DNA of 32,000 nucleotides from Vibrio alginolyticus NBRC 15630 = ATCC 17749 (GCF_000354175.2 NC_022349.1:1500001-1532000), one strand, 5' to 3'; numbered from the stretch's first letter, positions 14,194 to 32,000 are shown. The notes: generated from the letters alone by a model not told the origin. A program made the numbers and translations.

Positions 14194-14922
14194 TTATTCA
14201 GCTTCTACGAAACCGTCTTTTTCAGCAACTGCAGCTACGTCTTTGTTACGACCTTCAGATACTGCTGAAGCAGCAGCGTTCAGGTATAGCTGTACAGCGC
14301 GGATCGCGTCGTCGTTACCTGGGATTACGTAGTCAACGCCGTCTGGGTTAGAGTTAGTATCTACCACAGCGTATACTGGAATACCTAGGTTGTTAGCTTC
14401 TTTAATTGCAATGTGTTCGTGATCAGCGTCGATTACGAATAGAGCGTCTGGTAGGCCGCCCATGTCTTTGATACCACCAAGAGATTTCTCTAGCTTCTCC
14501 ATTTCGCGAGTACGCATTAGAGCTTCTTTCTTAGTTAGTTTGTCAAAAGTACCGTCTTGAGATTGAGTCTCTAGTTCTTTTAGACGCTTGATAGACTGAC
14601 GAACTGTTTTGTAGTTTGTAAGCATACCGCCTAACCAGCGGTTGTTCACGTAAAACTGGTTGCTTGCGATTGCAGCTTCTTTAACAGCTTCAGATGCAGC
14701 GCGCTTAGTACCTACGAATAGAACCTTACCTTTCTTCTCGCCAACTTTAGCTAGTTCAGCTAGAGCATCGTTGAACATTGGTACAGTTTTTTCTAGGTTG
14801 ATGATATGAACTTTGTTACGAGCGCCAAAGATGAATGGCTTCATTTTTGGGTTCCAGTAACGAGTCTGGTGACCGAAGTGAACACCAGCTTTTAGCATAT
14901 CGCGCATTGATACAGTTGCCAT
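14194..14922 (-). CDS. rpsB: 30S ribosomal protein S2
   Basis: ORF-track start 14955 trimmed to the ATG at 14920-14922 ([27 protein letters not shown]). This gives 242 aa (E. coli 241). Confidence 0.98.
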
Positions 14923-15112
14923 TTTAAAATCCTCTATGGGGTTAGGCCTCCACATTCCCCATAACTCCGACCAAGCTTCTGCTCAGCACCCCGGAATATG
15001 TGACGGAATGTGTGTGATTTAAAGATAAAAGGTTATTCGGATGAAGCTTGCTTCGCCGCTTAACTTTGCTAAACGAAGAGAACAGTCCTCTATTCCGGCG
15101 CGCTTTATACCA
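14923..15112 (-). promoter_or_regulatory. rpsB promoter (extended -10 TGGTATAAA) plus a ~170-nt structured leader (candidate S2 autoregulatory leader)
   Basis: Plus-strand tttatacca at 15104-15112 reads TGGTATAAA on the minus strand. The long untranslated leader is comparable in length to the E. coli rpsB 5'UTR, which is known to mediate S2 feedback. Confidence 0.45.
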
Positions 15113-22506: not shown

Positions 22507-22754
22507 ATCTGTTCCTTGATTACAACAAACTTAATCTATCCGCAGATCACAAACTCGATGAGCTGAACATGCTCAATGATTGCGGGCATAACACCTTGTA
22601 GAGAAGCCGAAAGTTAAACCAACTGGTTGGAAAGGATATTGATCTGAGTTGTTTTTTATTAAGTGTTATTAGGAATTTATATATTTTGTGATATTGATAT
22701 CCCCAAGCAACATCGAGATGCTTAATTCAATGAGAACACTGGATATCGTTTTTA

Positions 22755-22789
22755 TATAAGAAAGACCCCGACACATAAGTATCGGGGTC
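22755..22789 (-). terminator. Rho-independent terminator of the CsrB-like sRNA
   Basis: The minus strand reads GACCCCGA-tacttatgtg-TCGGGGTC (plus 22764-22789) followed by TTTCTTAT. Confidence 0.8.
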
Positions 22790-23162
22790 ATGGTCTTACT
22801 CGCAGCAGTCCGGCTACTAAAAGTGCTCCATGCATCATCCATAATAGTGGCTGATTCCGTCAGCTTATTCCTTACGTCGCCGTCCTAGCGGTGTCCTTAT
22901 CATCCTGACTGCTAACATTCCTCGTTAGCACACGTCACTTGTTCCTTGAGCGGTGTCCCTTGCATCTTCCTGATGCTGTCCATAACCTCAATCCTAGAGG
23001 GTCCATTGTCTATCCTTAGTCATCAACATCCTATTGATGATCGTATCCTTACAATGTCCTACGCTCCATGCTTGATTAATCATCCTGACCAACCAAATCG
23101 TCTTCCTGACGATAACCAAATCCTTGGTGCTTTCCTGTTCCATGTCTGCTTCCTGCTGACAA
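22758..23162 (-). ncRNA. csrB: CsrB-family CsrA-sequestering sRNA (~400 nt; 5' end approximate)
   Basis: By manual count, 26 GGA motifs (17 of them AGGA) lie on the minus strand between 22,790 and 23,161, and none on the plus strand. Many sit in short hairpin loops, e.g. CGTC-AGGAA-GACG, GCATC-AGGAA-GATGC, GCTAAC-GAGGAAT-GTTAGC and CATCAA-TAGGAT-GTTGATG. The RNA has a terminator at its 3' end and a promoter and GacA box upstream. The only ORF here is an antisense low-complexity 81-aa artefact. Confidence 0.88.
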
Positions 23163-23416: not shown

Positions 23417-23710
23417 ATGTTAACTCAAGACGTTACTAAAGAATTAGAAGCGGTAATGGAACAACTGCAACAACAAGGAAAAGAACCAACCGTAGCGTTA
23501 GTGAAAGCACGCTTGAAAACGCCCGTCCCAATGCCTGCATTAATCACCGCAATAAAAAGTTGGAAAAGTGCTCAGCGTGTTCCCAAGGTTGAAGTCGCAG
23601 CACAAGCGCACACCGATAATGATCGTCTTGCAGCGCTAGAAAGCACGGTGAAAAAATTAGTGGCTCGTATTGAAGAGCTAGAAGCCAAGCTAAGTGAGAA
23701 ATCATCATGA
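23417..23710 (+). CDS. Small KfrA_N-like DNA-binding protein with a C-terminal coiled coil
   Basis: 97 aa. [34 protein letters not shown] fits the KfrA N-terminal pattern G..PT...V+..L......I...I..WK. The C-terminal part is a heptad-like helix ([22 protein letters not shown]). AAGGA Shine-Dalgarno sequence upstream. Confidence 0.7.
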
Positions 23711-24156
23711 AGTTATGGGTAGATGCAGACGCGTGTCCAAAAGTTATTCGCGAAACCATTGTGCGTGCCGCCGAGCGTACGGGGATTGAATGTACGTTTG
23801 TCGCTAACCACGTTGTCCCTGTGCCGAAAAGAGACAACATCCATTCGCTACAAGTCCCTGCGGGATTTGACATCGCAGACAACGAAATCGTCAAGCGTGT
23901 AGAAGCCAACGATTTGGTGATCACGTCAGATATTCCGCTTGCAGATGAGGTTATCTCTAAAGGCGCTCAAGCCCTCAGTTCTCGTGGCGAGCTCTATACA
24001 AAAGACACCATCAAAGCTCGCCTAAATATCCGCGACTTTATGGAAACCATGCGTTCAAGCGGAATTCAGACAGGTGGGCCCGCCGCGCTTTCTCAAACCG
24101 ATCGACGCGAATTTGCAAACCATTTGGATCGTATTTTGGCGAAATTTAAGAAGTAA
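23707..24156 (+). CDS. yaiI: YaiI/YqxD family protein (UPF0178, DUF188)
   Basis: 149 aa with the family N-terminus [14 protein letters not shown] and the VITSDIPLA block. ATGA start/stop overlap with the preceding gene. Confidence 0.85.
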
Positions 24157-24174
24157 CCCTCACTCTATTCAAAT

Positions 24175-24201
24175 TGAGCCAGCAAATAAAAGCCTGGCTC
24201 A
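24175..24201 (+). terminator. Weak hairpin after yaiI (poor T-tract)
   Basis: TGAGCCAG-11 nt loop-CTGGCTCA followed by TTCCTGAAAATT. Probably a leaky terminator at best. Confidence 0.3.
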
Positions 24202-24350
24202 TTCCTGAAAATTCATTCTCAGCATTGCACCCAAAGCGTGCTCTTACTCCCATTTGTTTTGTTCTGTTTATTTTTCATCTCGCTCACCATAGCTTCAATA
24301 TGCAACGTGGTTTATTTTGAACGACGTTTTTAATAAGTGTATAGAGAATA

Positions 24351-25340
24351 ATGGGCTTTAACATCGTTTCCAGTGGAAGCTACCTGCCAACGAATCAATG
24401 GTCTGATCGAGAGATGGATCACTTCCTAAAATTAGCGCCAGGGACCTGCCGAAATAAATTCGACGTTGAATATCGTCATGTAGCCAATACAAAAGAGACC
24501 GCTATTTACATGGCGGTGCAGGCAATAGAGCAGTGTTTAGGAAACACACATACCTTAAGCTCCGTTGATCTCCTTATCTACGCTAGCGGTACACACCACC
24601 AGTCTCTACCCTACGACGCTTCAGCGGTTCTCGCCGCGTTAGACGCTCCAACATGGCTAGAAAGCTTTGATTTGAACAGCACCTGTTTATCCTTTCTCTC
24701 TGCGCTTGATCTTGCTCAGAGTCTATTCTTAGCAAAACGGTACCGTCGGATTCTTATTGTCACCAGCGAACTCGCCACTGGCATCACACTGAATCGAAAT
24801 TTTACGCTCAAACCAGAAGTTGCAACCTTATTCGCGGACGGTGCCGCCGCATTTTTGCTCGAAGAACACAACGATGATGGATTGCTCACCAGTCACTTTG
24901 AAACGCATCATACCGGGTATTCATTTTGTCAAATTAAGGGCGGAGGTAGTCATATCAATCCGCATACCTCCGAGCATCAAGCCTATTTAAAAAGTTGCCA
25001 GTTTGAGATGGAGGGCAAAGCACTCTTTAAACATGTGCGTAAAGCCTTACCAGCGTTTCTAAAAAAAGGGTTTGACGCCTCTCCGGTAACACTCGGCGAT
25101 ATTGATTATTTTCTTCCTCATCAAGCCAGCGCGCATGGATTAAAAAAACTGCCTTCACTCACCGGGCTACCAACAGAGAAAACCGTTAATCACTTTTCGA
25201 CTTTGGGAAACCAAGTCGCCGCCTCACTCCCAATTAACTTACACTGGCTGCGTAATCAGCCAGAAACCGCAGGAAAACATGTGTTATTAGCTGGCACCGC
25301 CGCAGGGTTGTCACTAGGGATGGGAGTGCTAAAACTATGA
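24351..25340 (+). CDS. FabH-like 3-oxoacyl-ACP synthase III (KAS III) family condensing enzyme
   Basis: 329 aa, collinear with FabH. N-terminus IVSSGSYLP, catalytic Cys context DLNSTCLSFLSAL, LFADGAAAFLL, His in YFLPHQAS, Asn in LGNQVAASLP. The Cys-His-Asn triad is intact. Confidence 0.9.
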   Translation: MGFNIVSSGSYLPTNQWSDREMDHFLKLAPGTCRNKFDVEYRHVANTKETAIYMAVQAIEQCLGNTHTLSSVDLLIYASGTHHQSLPYDASAVLAALDAPTWLESFDLNSTCLSFLSALDLAQSLFLAKRYRRILIVTSELATGITLNRNFTLKPEVATLFADGAAAFLLEEHNDDGLLTSHFETHHTGYSFCQIKGGGSHINPHTSEHQAYLKSCQFEMEGKALFKHVRKALPAFLKKGFDASPVTLGDIDYFLPHQASAHGLKKLPSLTGLPTEKTVNHFSTLGNQVAASLPINLHWLRNQPETAGKHVLLAGTAAGLSLGMGVLKL

Positions 25341-26323
25341 AGATATTGGTCACTGGTGGCAGCGGGATGTTGGGTAGCGCAATTCTGAGAATGTTTCACC
25401 AGCAGCATGAACTGCATTTTACAGCACGAAATACAGTCATCGCTAAACAACTCGCCGAGCAATTCGATGTTATCCCACATATAGTCGATTTAAGAGACCA
25501 CTCAGCAGTTCATGCGGTATGCCAAGGTATGGATGCAATCATCCATTGTGCCGCTCTCTCAAGCCCATGGGGAAAATGGCAGGCGTTTTATCAAGCCAAT
25601 GTAGATGCCACCAAAAACCTCGTCAATGCGGCTAATACCCATCAAATCTCGCGTTTTATCCATATTTCCTCCACCAGCGTCTACTTTGACCATCAAGACC
25701 GTTGGAATATTCGAGAAACCGGCGCCATAGCTTCATACTGGTGTAATGATTATGCACACACAAAATACCTATCGGAAATTGAAGCCGTAAAAGGCCAAAG
25801 CAAAGCGATCATTTTAAGACCGCGTGGCATTTTTGGACCCAATGATCGCGCGATTGTCCCAAGAGTGCTTAAGGCGATAAAAAACAACACTCTGCTTCTG
25901 CCATCGGGTAGAAATCCTGTGGTTGATCTGACTTATGTCGATAACGTTGCCCATGCAGCGATGCTCGCTTGCACTCAGGCAGACCGACTTCAGCATGGTG
26001 ATGTGTTCAACATTTCCAACAACGAACCAATGCCAATTGAGACTGTTCTGCAAGCTTTATGTGAGGGGTTAAACCTAAAAGTAACGTTACAATCATTACC
26101 ATATGGCGTTGTATCACCATTATTAAAGCTCAGTGAGCAAATACGAAGGCACCTACCACATCAGCCAGAACCAAGGCTCACCTCATACAGCGCAGGATTA
26201 TTTAACTATCATCAAACTCTGGATATCAGCAAGGCTAAACAAACACTGAATTATCAACCGCTTTTTTCAATTCAAGAAGGAATACAGCAGTATGCAAACT
26301 GGTCTAAAAATAAAAATCTTTGA
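25337..26323 (+). CDS. Extended-SDR NAD(P)-dependent oxidoreductase (epimerase/dehydratase, 3beta-HSD-like)
   Basis: 328 aa with Rossmann motif ILVTGGSGMLGS, DAIIHCAAL, catalytic YAHTKYLSE (YxxxK) and ILRPRGIFGP. ATGA overlap with the upstream gene. Confidence 0.9.
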   Translation: MKILVTGGSGMLGSAILRMFHQQHELHFTARNTVIAKQLAEQFDVIPHIVDLRDHSAVHAVCQGMDAIIHCAALSSPWGKWQAFYQANVDATKNLVNAANTHQISRFIHISSTSVYFDHQDRWNIRETGAIASYWCNDYAHTKYLSEIEAVKGQSKAIILRPRGIFGPNDRAIVPRVLKAIKNNTLLLPSGRNPVVDLTYVDNVAHAAMLACTQADRLQHGDVFNISNNEPMPIETVLQALCEGLNLKVTLQSLPYGVVSPLLKLSEQIRRHLPHQPEPRLTSYSAGLFNYHQTLDISKAKQTLNYQPLFSIQEGIQQYANWSKNKNL

Positions 26324-27155
26324 GGCTGGACACTGCGTACACCCAGGCTTTGTTGTCAAACCAGGTTCTGGTATCAAGCCTAGAGCATTTCCGGCAGCCG
26401 TTGCGTTAATTCAGCACCCAACACAAGGCAACATCCTGTTTGACACGGGATATCACGAGCATTTTTTTAGCGCGACTCGTCCCTTCCCTGAACGTTTTTA
26501 TGCTTGGACAACACCTTGTCGCTATAAAAAAGAACACGGAATTGTTGCGCAGTTAGCAAAAGAAAGTCTCAAACCTCATGATATTGAACACTTAGTGCTC
26601 TCCCACTTCCATGCTGATCACATTGCGGCCGTGTCTGAGTTTTCCCACTCTCAATTGCATTGCCAACAAAAAGGGGTGGATGCAATTACTAAAAGTGGTC
26701 GAATTGGAGGCGTAAGAAAAGGATACCTAAAAGCTCTACTTCCTCCACAACTTGAATCTAACTTATTCATTCATAGTGATTTTTCTGTATCAATCAGCCA
26801 AATTCTTCCTCAGTGCCAAGGTGTTAATTTGCTCTGTAAAGACATGTTCGACGATGGATTTATTTATATGGTTAGCTTGCCAGGCCATGCAGCTGGCCAA
26901 GTGGGCTTGCTGGTTAAAAGAGACCAAGGTTGGCTGTTCTTACTCGCCGATGCATGCTGGTTAATCGAGAGCTTGAGTGAAAATATCGATCAACATTGGC
27001 TGGCGAACATGCTTTGCGATGATACAAAAGCCTACAAAAACACCCTCTCCGAGTTGAGAAGTTGCTACCAACAAACCCACCACTTTGTTCGCTTCGTGCC
27101 TTCACATTGTCAGGAAACTATCCAGCAGCTAATCAAAGAAGGATGGATGAAGTGA
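26292..27155 (+). CDS. MBL-fold metallo-hydrolase (lactonase or thioesterase-like)
   Basis: 287 aa with HxHxDH (LSHFHADHIAA), a later His in LPGHAAGQ, Asp in LLADACW and a distal His in VPSHCQE. The only ATG start gives a 32-nt overlap with the SDR gene. Confidence 0.88.
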   Translation: MQTGLKIKIFEAGHCVHPGFVVKPGSGIKPRAFPAAVALIQHPTQGNILFDTGYHEHFFSATRPFPERFYAWTTPCRYKKEHGIVAQLAKESLKPHDIEHLVLSHFHADHIAAVSEFSHSQLHCQQKGVDAITKSGRIGGVRKGYLKALLPPQLESNLFIHSDFSVSISQILPQCQGVNLLCKDMFDDGFIYMVSLPGHAAGQVGLLVKRDQGWLFLLADACWLIESLSENIDQHWLANMLCDDTKAYKNTLSELRSCYQQTHHFVRFVPSHCQETIQQLIKEGWMK

Positions 27156-28411
27156 GAACGCTTATCTCAGAATTCTGGCGAACCCGCTACCGCCCCTTCG
27201 GCTCAAGGGAACAAGTCGAAACATGGCAGCAACAACACTTAACGCAACACTTGGATTGGGTATGCCGCCATTCACCGTATTACCGCTCACTTCAAGGTGC
27301 ACCACTCAGTGATTTCCCTATCATGAATAAGCAAACCATGATGGAGAACCTTTCAGAGTTGAATACGAAGGGCTTAGATGCTGAACAGTTAATGCAGCAG
27401 GCACTCAAAGCAGAGCAGTCACGCAACTTTGCCGCTTCGAAAGTTGGCGATGTTACGGTTGGGCTTTCTTCGGGCACATCAGGCATGCGCGGGCTGTTTC
27501 TTGCTGACAAACAGGAAACGCAACTGTGGGCTGGCAATATATTGGCTCGCCTGTTGCCCAACCTATGGCAAAAGCACCGAATTGCGCTAGCCTTGCGCGC
27601 CAACAGCCCACTGTATAAATCCGTCGCGAAAGGCCCTGTCACATTCTTTTATGCGGATTTAACTAAACCTTACCAAGAATGGATAAAAGAATTGGATGAG
27701 TTCCAACCCACGCTTTTGGTTGGTAGTGCGCAAGCTCTTCAGCTCTGCGCCCAGTTCAGCGGTCAATTTGGTCAACCCGCAATTCAACCACAGCGGATCA
27801 TTTCTGGTGCAGAAGTCCTAACTGAGAGTGACCGTCACTTTATTTCTCAACGGTTCGACAGCGAACTCCATGAAGTCTATCAATGTACCGAAGGTTTTCT
27901 TGCATGTACTGAACAGCATGGACAAATGCGCTGGAATCAAGATGTTGTTTACATCGAAAAACATTGGCTGAATACCGAACGTACTCATTACAGCCCAATT
28001 ATCACCGATTTTCGTCGTAAAACTCAGCCCATTATTCGTTATCAGCTCGACGATATTATTGAGAATAAACAGGATAATGGCGTATTTGAACCTCTTGGCG
28101 CGATTGCCGGACGATGTGGTGATCGCCTCACGCTAAACGCAAACCACGTCCCAGTGACGGTGTTACCAGATCTCATCTACCGCGCTATAACACTATCCGC
28201 CCAAAGTCGCGTGGATTACCGAATCACCCAAACAGGGTCACAAGCCATTCAAATTGAAGCGGATGTTCACCACCATCGGGTTATACATCAAGCCTTGATA
28301 AAGTTGTTTGACCAATTGCGGCTTGATCCTGTCAGATTTAGTTACCGCCCTGCGCCTATTTGGACGCCAATGAATAAACAACGACGTGTGGTGAACATAT
28401 GCGGGTCTTAA
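27143..28411 (+). CDS. F390 synthetase-related / PaaK-like adenylate-forming enzyme
   Basis: ORF-track start 27062 trimmed to the ATG at 27143 (MDEVRTLISEFWRTRY...). An alternative is GTG 27152, which forms a GTGA overlap with the upstream stop. ANL motifs are GLSSGTSGMRGLF (P-loop-like) and YQCTEG. Confidence 0.85.
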   Translation: MDEVRTLISEFWRTRYRPFGSREQVETWQQQHLTQHLDWVCRHSPYYRSLQGAPLSDFPIMNKQTMMENLSELNTKGLDAEQLMQQALKAEQSRNFAASKVGDVTVGLSSGTSGMRGLFLADKQETQLWAGNILARLLPNLWQKHRIALALRANSPLYKSVAKGPVTFFYADLTKPYQEWIKELDEFQPTLLVGSAQALQLCAQFSGQFGQPAIQPQRIISGAEVLTESDRHFISQRFDSELHEVYQCTEGFLACTEQHGQMRWNQDVVYIEKHWLNTERTHYSPIITDFRRKTQPIIRYQLDDIIENKQDNGVFEPLGAIAGRCGDRLTLNANHVPVTVLPDLIYRAITLSAQSRVDYRITQTGSQAIQIEADVHHHRVIHQALIKLFDQLRLDPVRFSYRPAPIWTPMNKQRRVVNICGS

Positions 28412-29511
28412 TCACCGGAGCCCGAGCACCAGTTGCACTAGAGTGGGCAACCATGTGTATGCATCATGGGCATGAAGTAATTCTCACCGATTCGCTAAAA
28501 AAGCCTCTGGGATCATTTTTGCGAGGTATCGAGTCTTATATACCCACCGCTTCACCTCGATTTACGTTTCCCACCTATCAACAGCAGATCCTAAAAATCA
28601 TTACTCAGATGCGTATTGATATAGTGATACCCACTTGTGAAGAAGTTTATTACTTGGCTCATGTTGCCAAACAATGCCCAGAAGTAGATTTTTTTCTGCC
28701 CAATGTGGGACTACTCAATGCCCTGCACAACAAGTTGACCGTCTTTGAACAGCTTCAAGGTTTGCCAGAAATCACACTTCCAAAAACTCGTTTGGTCGCT
28801 GATAAAAGTGAGATTGAAATTAATAAGAGAACCGTTCTAAAACCCGTTTACTCTCGGTTTGGCGGGCAAGTCATAAGAGATGTGACGACTCAGTCTATTT
28901 CTGCCGCCACGATATCGCCCCTTTTCCCTTGGGTTCAGCAACAAAAAATCCATGGGACTCCGGTGTGTAACTATGCCATTTTTGAACATGGTGACCTTAA
29001 AGCACACCAAGCTTATGTGCCGAAATACTGTGTAAACGGCTCGGCCGCCAGTGCTTTTCAGCCGATCTCGTGCGAACGACTAGATACATTTATCGCAGCT
29101 TTTGGTAAACGTCATACTTATCATGGGCAAGTGTCGTTTGACTTCATCAAATCACAAGATGAACTCTACGTGATTGAATGTAACCCAAGAGCCACCAGTG
29201 GTTTGCACCTACTCTCGTCTCGATGCAACCAACTGCTTCCTAATATGGAGTTTACCAGTCCTTCCGAGCAGCGATTGCATCATTTAGGTCCAATAACACT
29301 CATCGCTGAAGGCGGGTTATCCCTGTTCAAGGCTCGAACTTGGCTAGATTGGTGGTCTGGAGTGAATGTGATGCAACAGCATAACTTACCGGTCGGGAGC
29401 CAAATCCGGAGTATGTTTGAATTACTCCGGTTAGCTAGGCAGAACAAGACGAAGTGGAGCGACGCTTCTACCGTTGATATTGAGTGGAATGGAGAGGCAT
29501 TGAACTCATGA
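28399..29511 (+). CDS. ATP-grasp family ligase
   Basis: 370 aa with an N-terminal pre-ATP-grasp Rossmann-like segment (MRVLITGARAPVALE), ATP-binding Lys context VLKPVYSRFG and a Mg/ATP site in LYVIECNPRATSG. 13-nt overlap with the upstream gene. Confidence 0.85.
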   Translation: MRVLITGARAPVALEWATMCMHHGHEVILTDSLKKPLGSFLRGIESYIPTASPRFTFPTYQQQILKIITQMRIDIVIPTCEEVYYLAHVAKQCPEVDFFLPNVGLLNALHNKLTVFEQLQGLPEITLPKTRLVADKSEIEINKRTVLKPVYSRFGGQVIRDVTTQSISAATISPLFPWVQQQKIHGTPVCNYAIFEHGDLKAHQAYVPKYCVNGSAASAFQPISCERLDTFIAAFGKRHTYHGQVSFDFIKSQDELYVIECNPRATSGLHLLSSRCNQLLPNMEFTSPSEQRLHHLGPITLIAEGGLSLFKARTWLDWWSGVNVMQQHNLPVGSQIRSMFELLRLARQNKTKWSDASTVDIEWNGEALNS

Positions 29512-30581
29512 CACTTTCCTCTCAAGAATGGCATCAAACCTTTATCACTCTCATGCAGTCAAATCCTATTGATGAATGCACAGCAAGCTTTGGTTGCTAC
29601 TATATCGATGACGTTGCCATTCCTTACTCCGTAACACCAAAAATACCAAACAACTGTTATGCAGTCTCCCCTATGACACTGCTTAGTGGCTACGCCGAAG
29701 AAGAGCTTCACAAAGTCAAAAATGTGGCTGTTCGATGGGTATGTAAGTTACTTATTAATATGACTAAACCAATCTTATCACTGGCTGGATTGGATCAAGT
29801 CCAAACGCTCAACAATCAGTGCTTGTCCACCAATATGTATAGCGAACAATGGGCAGCCTTAAATCTCGATGAACTGCGTCGCGTCGCACGCGATCAATAC
29901 CCCACCTTTCCCTTGGTGCTTCGCTCCCTCAACCAGCGTCAGCATTTACACTTAATTCAGCGATTGAAGCAGCCAAAATGGCAAAGCTTGGTAACACGAC
30001 AAGTGTATTTACTTGATGATTGGCAAGCGTTCAGCTTCAACCGAGATTTAACGAAAGACTTCAAACTGCTTAATGATAAAGATTGGCAGTTTAGGCCACT
30101 GACCACTGATGAAGAGTTTCAGCGTGCCAAAGAGTTATATGACATGCTTTACCTTGATAAATACAGCCTCAATAACATACAGTTTTCAACCCAATATTTA
30201 AAACAGGCGAGCCAGAACAAATTAGTACAGTTAGTGGGACTGTTTTATCAAGAAGAGATGCTGGCTACGTTAGGCATTGTAGAAATTGATAATGATATGA
30301 CTTGCCCAATTTTTGGCTACGATACCAATAAGCCACAACGCCTCGCATTGTATCGTCGAATATCGGCCTATACCATCCGCCACGCAATGATATTCCAGCG
30401 TCGCTTTAATATGAGCTCAGGTGCTCCGGCTTTTAAACGCAACAGAAAAGCCCGGCCAGAAATTGAATTTAGCTATGTTTATATTGCGCACTTACCTTGG
30501 TACAAACGCATAATTTGGAAAAGCTTATGCTGGCTCACTCAGCACTTTTATCGCCCTTTGTTGATGCGTTTTCAGCTATAA
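29508..30581 (+). CDS. Uncharacterised protein with a C-terminal FemAB/CelD-like (GNAT-fold) acyltransferase-like region
   Basis: ORF-track start 29484 trimmed to ATG 29508 (MTLSSQEWH...), an ATGA overlap with the ATP-grasp stop. The C-terminal segment GYDTNKPQRLALYRRISAYTIRHAMIFQRRFNMSSGAPAFKRNRKARP resembles the G..D....LY...i..A...g...f.mg.Ga..fK..RGa.P pattern of FemAB/CelD-like acyltransferases. I see no motif in the N-terminal ~200 aa. Confidence 0.7.
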   Translation: MTLSSQEWHQTFITLMQSNPIDECTASFGCYYIDDVAIPYSVTPKIPNNCYAVSPMTLLSGYAEEELHKVKNVAVRWVCKLLINMTKPILSLAGLDQVQTLNNQCLSTNMYSEQWAALNLDELRRVARDQYPTFPLVLRSLNQRQHLHLIQRLKQPKWQSLVTRQVYLLDDWQAFSFNRDLTKDFKLLNDKDWQFRPLTTDEEFQRAKELYDMLYLDKYSLNNIQFSTQYLKQASQNKLVQLVGLFYQEEMLATLGIVEIDNDMTCPIFGYDTNKPQRLALYRRISAYTIRHAMIFQRRFNMSSGAPAFKRNRKARPEIEFSYVYIAHLPWYKRIIWKSLCWLTQHFYRPLLMRFQL

Positions 30582-30628
30582 ACCGACATCTATAATCAGG
30601 TAAGCCTGCGTACACAGTCTCAATCGAT

Positions 30629-30658
30629 AAAAAAGCCTGCGACGTTCGCAGGCTTTTT
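30629..30658. terminator. Bidirectional rho-independent terminator (end of six-gene operon / AbgT gene)
   Basis: AAAAA-GCCTGCGA-cgt-TCGCAGGC-TTTTT between convergent genes. Confidence 0.85.
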
Positions 30659-30687
30659 ATAATGGAGCTGTGTGAGGTAACCGTTTT

Positions 30688-32000
30688 CTACGGTGTGTAG
30701 TATGTTGCTGCGCCAGGGCCTACTGGTAAACCAAATACGAATACCCATAGGTAGAACAGCACACTCCAACCTACAATGAAGCAGATTGAGTAAGGTAGCA
30801 TGGTCGCGATCAGCGTACCGATACCTAAGTTCTTCATGTAACGAGTCGCTACGGCAAGAATCAAACCAAAGTAGCTCATCATTGGAGTAATGATGTTTGT
30901 CGTCGAGTCACCAATTCGGTAAGCAGCCTGAATCGTTTCCGGTGCATAACCAACAAGCATCAACATAGGAACAAAAATCGGAGCCGTTACTGCCCACTGT
31001 GCCGATGCCGAACCAATCATTAGGTTGATAAATCCACACATCAGGATGAAGGCAAAGAACAACATTGGGCCAGTTAAGCCAATTTCTTGCAGGAAGCTAG
31101 CGCCAGCAACCGCGAATACCTGACCGAAGTTAGTCCATTTAAAGAAAGCAACGAACTGAGCCGCAAAGAAAACTAATACAATGTACATGCCCATAGAAGA
31201 CATAGATTTCGCCATTGCATCAATTACATCGCGATCCGTCTTCATCGTGCCAACAACTTTACCAAACACAAAGCCTGGAATAGCAAAGAACACAAAGATG
31301 AATGCCACGATACTTTTCAGGAATGGTGAACCTGCAATTGTACCTGCATCAGAACGTAGAATGCCGTCTTCTGGAACAACCGTCCAAGCAAGCAGCGCTG
31401 AAACAACCAGTACAGCAACACCTGCTAGTTTTAGGCCTTTCTTCTCAATGTCTGTTAAGCCACCCATTTTGTCGTTCGACAAATCTTCTGAGGCTTCTTC
31501 TTCACTGTATTTGCCAAGCTTTGGCTCAACAATTTTTTCAGTAACAAACGCACCTGTGATTGCAATGAAGAATGTCGACACAAACATGAAGTACCAGTTA
31601 ACTTCTGGACCAACAGTGTAAGTTGGGTCGATCATTTGCGCCGCCGTTTCAGTAATGCCTGACAACAGCGGGTCAACCGTACCAATAAGTAGGTTTGCTG
31701 AGTAACCACCAGATACACCAGCGAACGCCGCAGCAAGACCGGCAAGTGGGTGACGACCTAAAGAATGGAACAGCATTGCAGCCAGTGGAATAAGTACCAC
31801 ATAGCCAAGCTCTGATGCCGTATTTGAAATGATACCCGCGAAAACGACCGTCACTGTTACCATGCGTTGAGATGCACCCATGACTAAGCCACGCATTGCT
31901 GCAGATAGCAAGCCTGAGTATTCAGCAATAGCAACACCCAACATAGCAACCAATACCGTACCCAAAGGTGCAAAGCCGACAAAGTTTTTCACTAGATTGG
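30688..32000 (-). CDS. AbgT family (p-aminobenzoyl-glutamate / antimetabolite) transporter, partial (N-terminus beyond window end)
   Basis: The reading frame is open to base 32000. It is a polytopic membrane protein with AbgT-like sequence (FVGFAPLGTVLVAMLGVAIAEYSGL..., ...IGDSTTNIITPMMSYFGL...). The ORF-track Met at 31992 is internal. Confidence 0.88.
   Translation of the reverse strand, partial: NLVKNFVGFAPLGTVLVAMLGVAIAEYSGLLSAAMRGLVMGASQRMVTVTVVFAGIISNTASELGYVVLIPLAAMLFHSLGRHPLAGLAAAFAGVSGGYSANLLIGTVDPLLSGITETAAQMIDPTYTVGPEVNWYFMFVSTFFIAITGAFVTEKIVEPKLGKYSEEEASEDLSNDKMGGLTDIEKKGLKLAGVAVLVVSALLAWTVVPEDGILRSDAGTIAGSPFLKSIVAFIFVFFAIPGFVFGKVVGTMKTDRDVIDAMAKSMSSMGMYIVLVFFAAQFVAFFKWTNFGQVFAVAGASFLQEIGLTGPMLFFAFILMCGFINLMIGSASAQWAVTAPIFVPMLMLVGYAPETIQAAYRIGDSTTNIITPMMSYFGLILAVATRYMKNLGIGTLIATMLPYSICFIVGWSVLFYLWVFVFGLPVGPGAATYYTP

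Follow-up and report, generated by a model that had tools for sequence, protein, structure and literature searches.

A conserved thiolase-reductase-hydrolase-adenylase gene cassette in Vibrio alginolyticus and its partial likeness to beta-lactone pathways

In a 32,000-nucleotide window of the Vibrio alginolyticus NBRC 15630 = ATCC 17749 chromosome (NC_022349.1:1500001-1532000; positions are counted from its first letter unless another locus is named), six open reading frames (ORFs) on the plus strand span 24351-30581. Because each overlaps its neighbour by 4-32 nt, they constitute one translationally coupled operon. The first four encode a 3-ketoacyl synthase III (KAS III)-type thiolase (24351-25340), an extended short-chain dehydrogenase/reductase (SDR; 25337-26323), a metallo-beta-lactamase (MBL)-fold hydrolase (26292-27155) and an adenylate-forming enzyme (27143-28411), at exactly the coordinates given in the original prediction, an earlier reading of this DNA; an ATP-grasp ligase and a protein of acyltransferase fold follow, as that reading had also said. 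We found that the first four genes recur together in distant phyla, and we propose, tentatively and with somewhat less than even confidence, that the operon is a conserved small-molecule biosynthetic cassette in which a thiolase-built beta-keto scaffold would be reduced, freed as an acid, re-adenylated and decorated with amino acids. Such a thiolase-reductase-adenylase pathway, assembled from non-orthologous parts, is apparently undescribed: no relevant account of the cassette, or of a role for TIGR02304, the 'F390 synthetase-related' family of its adenylating enzyme, was found in the open-access literature, a search that may miss subscription papers.

The KAS III-SDR-MBL-adenylase core recurs in Gammaproteobacteria, Campylobacterota, Cyanobacteria, Bacillota and metagenomes, and the gene assignments in these other genomes were confirmed by tblastn. 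All six genes, together with a Rieske oxygenase gene, are present in Hahella chejuensis. The Sulfurovum cassette includes a Rieske/VanA_C oxygenase, that of Limnothrix a Rieske oxygenase and an ABC exporter, and the cassette is also present in Ureibacillus; in Thermoflavimicrobium an alpha/beta hydrolase gene stands after the adenylase gene instead of the GNAT gene, a Pseudomonas plasmid carries the four-gene core only, and three metagenomic lineages contain the core. The SDR, MBL and adenylase genes are contiguous in every cassette, and cassette genes lie beside the adenylase in 11 of the 12 independent contexts examined. Since the same genes are adjacent in distant phyla, their grouping is not due to chance. 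The true unit is therefore a four-gene core with lineage-specific tailoring, as is usual in the anatomy of a biosynthetic gene-cluster family.

Gene fusions add to this picture. On 9 metagenomic contigs of one lineage the MBL and the adenylase are encoded as a single protein (P0264; L016 8001-10118, L017 3042-5159), the MBL part of which retains SHFHPDH and ADACW motifs, and the cluster reads TetR-KAS III-SDR-fusion-GT4 glycosyltransferase. The two enzymes are thus physically coupled by fusion. A second fusion joins a PAP2_3 membrane domain to the adenylase (P0161; L018 8001-9929) and is convergent with cassette MBL and SDR genes, a hint that the pathway of this lineage has some connection with membranes or lipids. 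The tailoring genes vary even within Vibrio: the GNAT gene is present in V. alginolyticus and V. diabolicus and absent from V. harveyi and V. floridensis, and its position is taken in V. harveyi by a gene for a MipA-family outer-membrane protein (L002 12369-13259), while V. floridensis has neither. The Rieske/VanA_C oxygenases are homologous across three phyla (Hahella L004 13469-14476, Sulfurovum L008 6409-7386 and Limnothrix L009 3432-4517). Their best named match, the sterol C4-methyl oxidase SdmA, was too weak to indicate a substrate (47-58 bits vs a cutoff of 600). None of the unannotated ORFs at the Hahella and Pseudomonas loci is common to both, and none has a Pfam match. Downstream of the Sulfurovum cassette, genes for PagP-like, acyl carrier protein (ACP), KS, Ketoacyl-synt_2 and O-methyltransferase proteins (L008 8012-10003) may extend the cassette or may form an aryl-polyene-like cluster of their own.

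The KAS III protein (329 aa) possesses both the N- and C-terminal domains of its family (Pfam ACP_syn_III and ACP_syn_III_C), and the catalytic triad Cys112/His257/Asn287 was invariant in all nine cassette orthologues. This triad is common to all KAS III enzymes and hence does not discriminate for membership of the OleA family. The top NCBIfam match, PRK07204, scored 230 bits, under its 402-bit cutoff, and the protein also fell under every FabH cutoff (157 bits vs 249 for the general FabH model). Searches of PDB sequences were performed with the single sequence and with a profile of the nine cassette orthologues. The highest scores were obtained for MxnB (4v2p; 120.5 bits with the single sequence and 342.6 with the profile) and CorB (4yuc; 110.2 and 335.5), followed by the best FabH (86.6 and 260.8), E. 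coli FabH (55 and 204.8), PqsD (54.8 and 158.8) and OleA (3row; 25.7 and ~104). MxnB and CorB are thus the closest solved relatives, at 31-41% identity; the Vibrio protein is 31% identical to MxnB, and its orthologues in Bacillota reach 41%. The shared features are an N-x-(S/T)-C-L-S-F active-site motif, a GGGS/T insertion that is absent from E. coli FabH, and a hydrophobic residue in place of the glutamate of OleA and PpyS. That catalytic glutamate (Glu117 in OleA of X. campestris, Glu105 in PpyS) reaches in from the partner subunit and corresponds to V94 in MxnB and CorB (Kresovic et al., PMC4578411). In the cassette protein the residue aligned with MxnB V94 is Leu86, and all nine orthologues have Leu or Ile there; the OleA-type glutamate, for which the original prediction had advised a search, is absent.

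Two assignments of the KAS III protein were therefore rejected. As an OleA it is remote by score and has no Glu117 equivalent; as a plain FabH it scores under the cutoffs, lies nearer to MxnB and CorB, and is fixed in a conserved operon outside fatty acid synthesis. The expectation that the family would differ from plain FabH was borne out by the profile scores of MxnB and CorB against that of the best FabH. MxnB and CorB, the pyrone-forming enzymes of myxopyronin and corallopyronin synthesis, are housed in large polyketide synthase/nonribosomal peptide synthetase (PKS/NRPS) clusters and take carrier-protein-bound chains, whereas the cassette KAS III heads a compact, carrier-free operon with an SDR, an MBL and an adenylase. 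Taken together, the similarity scores and motifs suggest that this family belongs closest to MxnB and CorB, which are head-to-head condensing ketosynthases.

The SDR (328 aa) is of the 3beta-hydroxysteroid dehydrogenase (3beta-HSD) type, with Pfam matches to Epimerase (124 bits) and 3Beta_HSD (115 bits), and its glycine-rich motif and catalytic pair Y139/K143 are invariant. Its best NCBIfam matches were two models of OleD, the 2-alkyl-3-oxoalkanoate reductase (177.8 and 175.7 bits), and the next family, HpnA, scored 106 bits; the closest PDB sequence was NSDHL (6jkg). The OleD models were the best match for all nine cassette SDRs (best E 4e-81), yet all of these fell under the equivalog cutoff of 580 bits. 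The cassette SDR is therefore rejected as an OleD equivalog, and by these scores it is a sister group of OleD, not a member. It is predicted to reduce a beta-keto group in an OleD-like manner. The cassette SDR also weakly matches SdmB, the partner of the sterol C4-methyl oxidase SdmA.

The MBL-fold hydrolase (287 aa, Pfam Lactamase_B) belongs to a lactonase-like subfamily. Its best relatives in both NCBIfam and the PDB are lactonases (AttM, 4-pyridoxolactonase, AiiB 2r2d and GcL), with a top lactonase score of 67 bits against the AttM equivalog cutoff of 390. The metal ligands are complete, and SHFHADH (HxHxDH), GHA, D220 and SHC are kept in all seven orthologues aligned; in the same seven, the lactonase motif 'DAxY' is replaced by 'DAxW', so that the catalytic Tyr is a Trp. 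The family therefore shares the full dinuclear metal-ligand set of the MBL lactonases (AiiA/AiiB/AttM/GcL and 4-pyridoxolactonase), its nearest sequence relatives, but differs from them in the Trp, in scores far under the cutoffs, in its setting within a biosynthetic cassette and, in places, in its fusion to an adenylase. Membership of the N-acyl-homoserine lactone (AHL) or gamma-lactone lactonases was rejected on the first two of these grounds. Similarity to PqsE, glyoxalase-II-type or other known MBL thioesterases was not detected at E <= 0.1.

The adenylating enzyme (422 aa) is a member of TIGR02304 (369.6 bits, above the cutoff of 251.9). Its AlphaFold model (pLDDT 91.4) had as top Foldseek matches PaaK1/2, BT_0428, NatL2, AjiA1, ClxA and the 2-hydroxyisobutyryl-CoA ligase HCL, with E = 2.8e-19 to PaaK1, and hhalign aligned the enzyme with E. 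coli PaaK at 98.1% probability; by phmmer, similarity to solved PaaK-type chains was marginal (E = 0.045 at best). The P-loop (G107 S109 G111 T112), YQxTEG, D289, R299-Y300-D304 and K412 were invariant in 47 sequences. Neither Pfam AMP-binding (PF00501) nor an OleC-type NCBIfam model matched at E <= 0.01, and in the fold search CysF, an ANL enzyme of a beta-lactone pathway, and the classical ANL enzymes ranked far lower than the PaaK-type matches, CysF only in 38th place. The proposal that the enzyme belongs to the PaaK/F390 clade rather than with OleC was therefore correct, and identity with OleC, NltC or LstC was rejected on length, family matches and fold. The fold and adenylation motifs agree with the PaaK family (PaaK1/2, HCL, NatL2, AjiA1, ClxA), but TIGR02304 forms a large clade of its own, still uncharacterised, with 944 representatives at 50% identity (E <= 1e-30), and no paa genes lie near the cassette adenylase, which is thus outside the paa operon context of PaaK. 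We know of no lactone-forming member of the PaaK fold. The PaaK family spans CoA ligases and enzymes that make esters or amides directly from the adenylate, such as NatL2 (PMC7204872) and ClxA (PMC12519233). Because NatL2 and ClxA form esters from adenylates, O-acylation from an adenylate lies within the repertoire of this fold.

The two genes that complete the Vibrio operon encode putative tailoring enzymes. The ATP-grasp ligase (28399-29511, 370 aa) belongs to the PRK06849 family (NF005315; 445.4 bits vs a cutoff of 406) and matches Pfam ATP-grasp_3. A single-sequence search of solved structures gave no match for it, and the best solved match of its profile, AMdnB, was weak (E 0.0019) and was set aside. 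ATP-grasp genes are also present in the cassettes of Hahella, Sulfurovum, Limnothrix, Ureibacillus, Thermoflavimicrobium and locus L013. The sixth protein (29508-30581, 357 aa) has no family match in Pfam or NCBIfam, and some of its homologues carry PF13480 or are named GNAT. Its AlphaFold model (pLDDT 93.5) is a tandem GNAT, and Foldseek matched it to the C-terminal domains of MprF (A-PGS and L-PGS), FemX, Sba18/Sbb17 and VipF (TM score ~0.5, probability 1.0), with only 8-13% identity in the structural alignments. The modelled fold thus resembles Fem/MprF-type aminoacyl transferases, including the aminoacyl-tRNA-dependent Sba18/Sbb17. The protein differs from them in having no detectable sequence-family membership, and aminoacyl-tRNA use is not implied; acetyl-CoA-dependent tandem GNATs of the VipF type fit the model equally well.

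The data establish directly the gene structure, the enzyme families, the intactness of the catalytic motifs, the conservation of the cassette and the fusion of MBL with adenylase, and from these we infer substrates, step order and product as follows. First, KAS III would use its Cys-His-Asn triad to condense two acyl units, activated as thioesters, to a beta-keto product. The acyl units would probably be drawn from primary metabolism, because no carrier protein is encoded, and since the enzyme has no catalytic Glu, its nucleophile is likely to be already acidic (malonyl or beta-ketoacyl). The condensation may be head-to-head and non-decarboxylative, as in the closest relatives, and a decarboxylative, FabH-like reaction is possible too. 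Second, the OleD-like SDR would turn the beta-keto group into a beta-hydroxyl. Third, the MBL, paired with the adenylase, would most simply hydrolyse a thioester or a lactone and so release the carboxylate. Fourth, the TIGR02304 enzyme would adenylate this carboxylate and transfer its acyl group to an oxygen or nitrogen nucleophile, giving an ester, an amide or a lactone; a CoA thioester would be a less economical outcome. The MBL and the adenylase may act in either order, by hydrolytic release followed by adenylation and transfer, or by adenylation followed by MBL processing. The V. alginolyticus pathway would end with the addition of one or more amino-acid units by its ATP-grasp ligase and its tandem GNAT of Fem/MprF-like fold. 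Other lineages have replaced these two by a Rieske oxygenase, an alpha/beta hydrolase, a glycosyltransferase or a PAP2 domain.

Several points weigh against this proposal. First, all functional similarities fall under the family cutoffs except those to TIGR02304 and PRK06849, and both of these families are uncharacterised. Second, the Vibrio operon encodes no dedicated carrier protein, regulator or exporter. Third, the MBL has neither the lactonase Tyr nor, at E <= 0.1, similarity to known MBL thioesterases. Fourth, a close homologue of the adenylase stands alone (P0067; L014 9001-10260), with no partners nearby and mostly unannotated small genes around it. Fifth, the fusion leaves the order of MBL and adenylase unfixed, because OleB-OleC fusions exist although OleB acts after OleC (PMC7064751). 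Finally, the adenylase could act first, as a starter-unit CoA ligase.

This last alternative can be given in full by analogy with PqsA, PqsD and PqsE. The PaaK-fold enzyme would activate the starter, an (aryl)acetic or hydroxy acid, as its CoA thioester, KAS III would extend it with malonyl-CoA or malonyl-ACP, the SDR would reduce the beta-keto group, the MBL would release a beta-hydroxy acid as a thioesterase, and the ATP-grasp ligase would couple this acid to an amino acid. Alkylquinolone synthesis offers a precedent for a CoA ligase that cooperates with a KAS III and an MBL thioesterase, and most characterised enzymes of the PaaK fold are CoA ligases (PaaK, HCL and probably BT_0428). In addition, KAS III needs a thioester donor and neither another activating enzyme nor an ACP is encoded, PqsD is a detectable relative of KAS III, and the ATP-grasp ligase would receive a free acid. 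The Pqs module and the cassette draw on the same three superfamilies (adenylating enzyme, KAS III and MBL-fold hydrolase), but PqsA is a class I ANL enzyme, the module has no SDR, PqsD is distant, and PqsE-type MBLs were not detected as relatives. The KAS III is far nearer to MxnB and CorB than to PqsD (profile scores of 342.6 for MxnB vs 158.8 bits for PqsD), and the MBL is closest to lactonases, with no PqsE or glyoxalase-II-type match at the threshold given above. Furthermore, OleD, the nearest relative of the SDR, acts on free acids; the MBL-adenylase fusion would link the last step to the first; and the adenylase comes last in the conserved core gene order. We therefore regard this route as rather unlikely.

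The original prediction had proposed that the enzyme logic of the operon parallels that of the Ole, Nlt and Lst beta-lactone pathways. In these, a thiolase joins two acyl-CoAs into a 2-alkyl-3-keto acid, which OleD or NltD reduces with NADPH (bioRxiv 10.1101/856955; PMC7064751), and the lactone is closed by an ANL enzyme of ~60 kDa (60 kDa for NltC); all proven beta-lactone synthetases (OleC, NltC and LstC) are ~60-kDa class I ANL enzymes (bioRxiv 10.1101/856955). The three enzyme classes named in that proposal, KAS III, 3beta-HSD-type SDR and adenylating enzyme, were verified and do stand together in a conserved operon. As in the known pathways, a thiolase-fold condensing enzyme, a 3beta-HSD-type SDR and an adenylate-forming enzyme are thus found in one cluster, and a hydrolase-fold partner lies beside the adenylase or is fused to it, as with OleB and OleC (PMC7064751). 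However, the thiolase is not OleA-like, the 422-aa PaaK-fold adenylase is not a ~60-kDa ANL enzyme, and the hydrolase has the MBL fold whereas OleB is an alpha/beta-fold hydrolase. Membership of OleB was rejected, as no alpha/beta-hydrolase gene is found among the six genes of the Vibrio operon and one follows the adenylase only in Thermoflavimicrobium.

Under this analogy, KAS III would yield a beta-keto acid and the SDR a beta-hydroxy acid, from which the TIGR02304 enzyme would form the acyl-adenylate and, by intramolecular attack on it, a beta-lactone. The MBL would then act on this lactone, either as an analogue of OleB or by ring-opening or transfer, and the ATP-grasp ligase and GNAT would decorate the product. 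Such a route finds support in the closeness of the SDR family to OleD, which reduces 2-alkyl-3-keto acids, in that of the KAS family to the head-to-head condensing MxnB and CorB, in the conserved order KAS-SDR-MBL-adenylase and in the lactonase relatives of the MBL. The MBL-adenylase fusion also parallels OleBC fusions (PMC7064751), and PaaK-fold relatives O-acylate from adenylates (PMC7204872, PMC12519233). However, the proven synthetases are class I ANL enzymes of ~60 kDa, whereas the cassette adenylase has 422 aa, a PaaK fold, no AMP-binding match and CysF only in 38th place in its fold search; the KAS III has no OleA Glu and is remote from OleA. A lactonase beside a lactone synthetase would be a futile cycle unless its chemistry had changed, and the ATP-grasp ligase needs a free carboxylate, which a lactone removes. 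Thus, the beta-lactone logic held in part: the SDR is nearest OleD and the KAS III nearest the head-to-head enzymes, while OleA and an OleC-type closure fell away. For closure by the adenylase, nothing ties TIGR02304 to this reaction, and its solved fold relatives yield CoA thioesters and intermolecular esters or amides.

Judged by family scores, the link of the SDR to the beta-lactone pathways is real, because OleD is its nearest named family. The link of the thiolase is indirect, through head-to-head relatives that belong to another clade and use another mechanism, and that of the adenylase exists at the superfamily level only. The analogy in pathway logic is reasonable, and a beta-lactone as the product would be a guess. 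We consider this route improbable. We give the same low credence to its corollary, that TIGR02304 would be a second class of ATP-dependent synthetases for lactones, possibly beta-lactones, with an evolutionary origin of its own; its partners would be an MxnB-like head-to-head thiolase, an OleD-like reductase and a protein of lactonase fold recruited to a new task. If it were true, lactone-warhead or lactone-derived metabolites would be widespread and unrecognised in four or more bacterial phyla, common marine Vibrio among them.

A route through a pyrone or another lactone appears very improbable. Here the MxnB-like KAS III would join an acyl and a beta-ketoacyl thioester and release a 2-pyrone-type lactone, the SDR would reduce it, the lactonase-like MBL would open the ring, and the adenylase and the ATP-grasp ligase would couple the resulting acid. 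These steps agree with the gene order, the MBL is closest to lactonases, and MxnB and CorB are the closest solved relatives of KAS III, sharing the GGGS insertion and the hydrophobic V94 position (PMC4578411). However, the Vibrio KAS III is only 31% identical to MxnB, with up to 41% in Bacillota, MxnB and CorB use chains bound to PKS carrier proteins, of which the Vibrio operon encodes none, the lactonase Tyr is replaced by Trp, and no pyrone has been tied to cassette genes. Modification of an envelope lipid instead of synthesis of a secreted metabolite, in which the core would make an unusual beta-hydroxy acyl unit for a membrane lipid that is then aminoacylated or glycosylated, is the least probable reading. 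In its favour are the resemblance of the tandem GNAT to the aminoacyl-lipid synthase domains of MprF and several lipid-related neighbours (the PAP2-adenylase fusion, the GT4 glycosyltransferase gene after the fusion cluster, the MipA-family outer-membrane protein gene that replaces the GNAT gene in V. harveyi and the PagP-like gene near the Sulfurovum cassette). Against it, the core enzymes are all of soluble types, these neighbours vary by lineage and may be coincidental, and the GNAT model is fitted about as well by FemX and Sba18-type enzymes with soluble substrates.

With its four genes, the core of the proposed biosynthetic cassette is compact and should be easy to express heterologously, and the mix of nearest relatives (MxnB/CorB, OleD, lactonases and PaaK) points to chemistry that present rules for cluster detection do not cover. 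A lactone-closing adenylase would be a new kind of enzyme for making reactive lactone warheads. Should the adenylase do something else, the cassette would still define an acyl-amino-acid, glycoside or lipid product of abundant marine bacteria.

The boundaries of the operon were also analysed. Upstream, a 194-nt gap (24157-24350, plus strand) separates it from yaiI, which ends at 24156. The promoter is presumed to lie in this leader region, in which no sigma-70 promoter consensus was found, and no Rfam riboswitch or leader that might give a clue to a ligand was found upstream of the operon. Downstream, a bidirectional intrinsic terminator (30629-30660) consisting of an A-tract, a GC-rich stem of 8 bp (GCCUGCGA/UCGCAGGC) and a U-tract closes both the operon and a convergent abgT-family transporter gene. 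The RNA fold of 30575-30695 has a minimum free energy of -42.7 kcal/mol (z = -5.1), and weak Rfam matches of the attenuator-leader type coincide with this terminator. The overlapping ORFs, the leader gap and the closing terminator therefore argue for one operon. Two start codons required a choice. For the adenylase, ATG 27143 fits the length of its homologues (416-422 aa), and TTG 27062, proposed by the ORF finder, was rejected as too early and in disagreement with them. For the sixth gene, ATG 29508 is more likely than GTG 29484, because homologues of the protein have 357 aa.

By sequence identity (98% to P0001 and 97% to V. diabolicus), the window comes from V. alginolyticus or a near relative. 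The chromosomal surroundings are ordinary (bamA, rpsB, map, glnD and others), and three further species, V. diabolicus, V. harveyi and V. floridensis, show synteny at this locus. Because the GC content of the operon (0.43-0.48) is similar to that of the flanking DNA and synteny extends to these three species, a recent horizontal-transfer island is not obvious.

Three further elements were noted in the window. A full-length small RNA of the CsrB/RsmB family (22754-23056, minus strand; RF00018, 89.5 bits, gathering score 71) is located upstream of the operon at a distance of ~1.3 kb, with a GNAT gene on one side and the pair formed by a 97-aa ORF and yaiI on the other. A t44 RNA (14941-15034, minus strand; RF00127, 79.4 bits) is located upstream of rpsB (14194-14955, minus strand), as is usual in gammaproteobacteria. 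The 97-aa ORF (23417-23710, plus strand) encodes a coiled-coil protein with weak matches only, to KfrA_N and PspB-like models; it shares 4 nt with the start of yaiI and is kept in three other Vibrio species.

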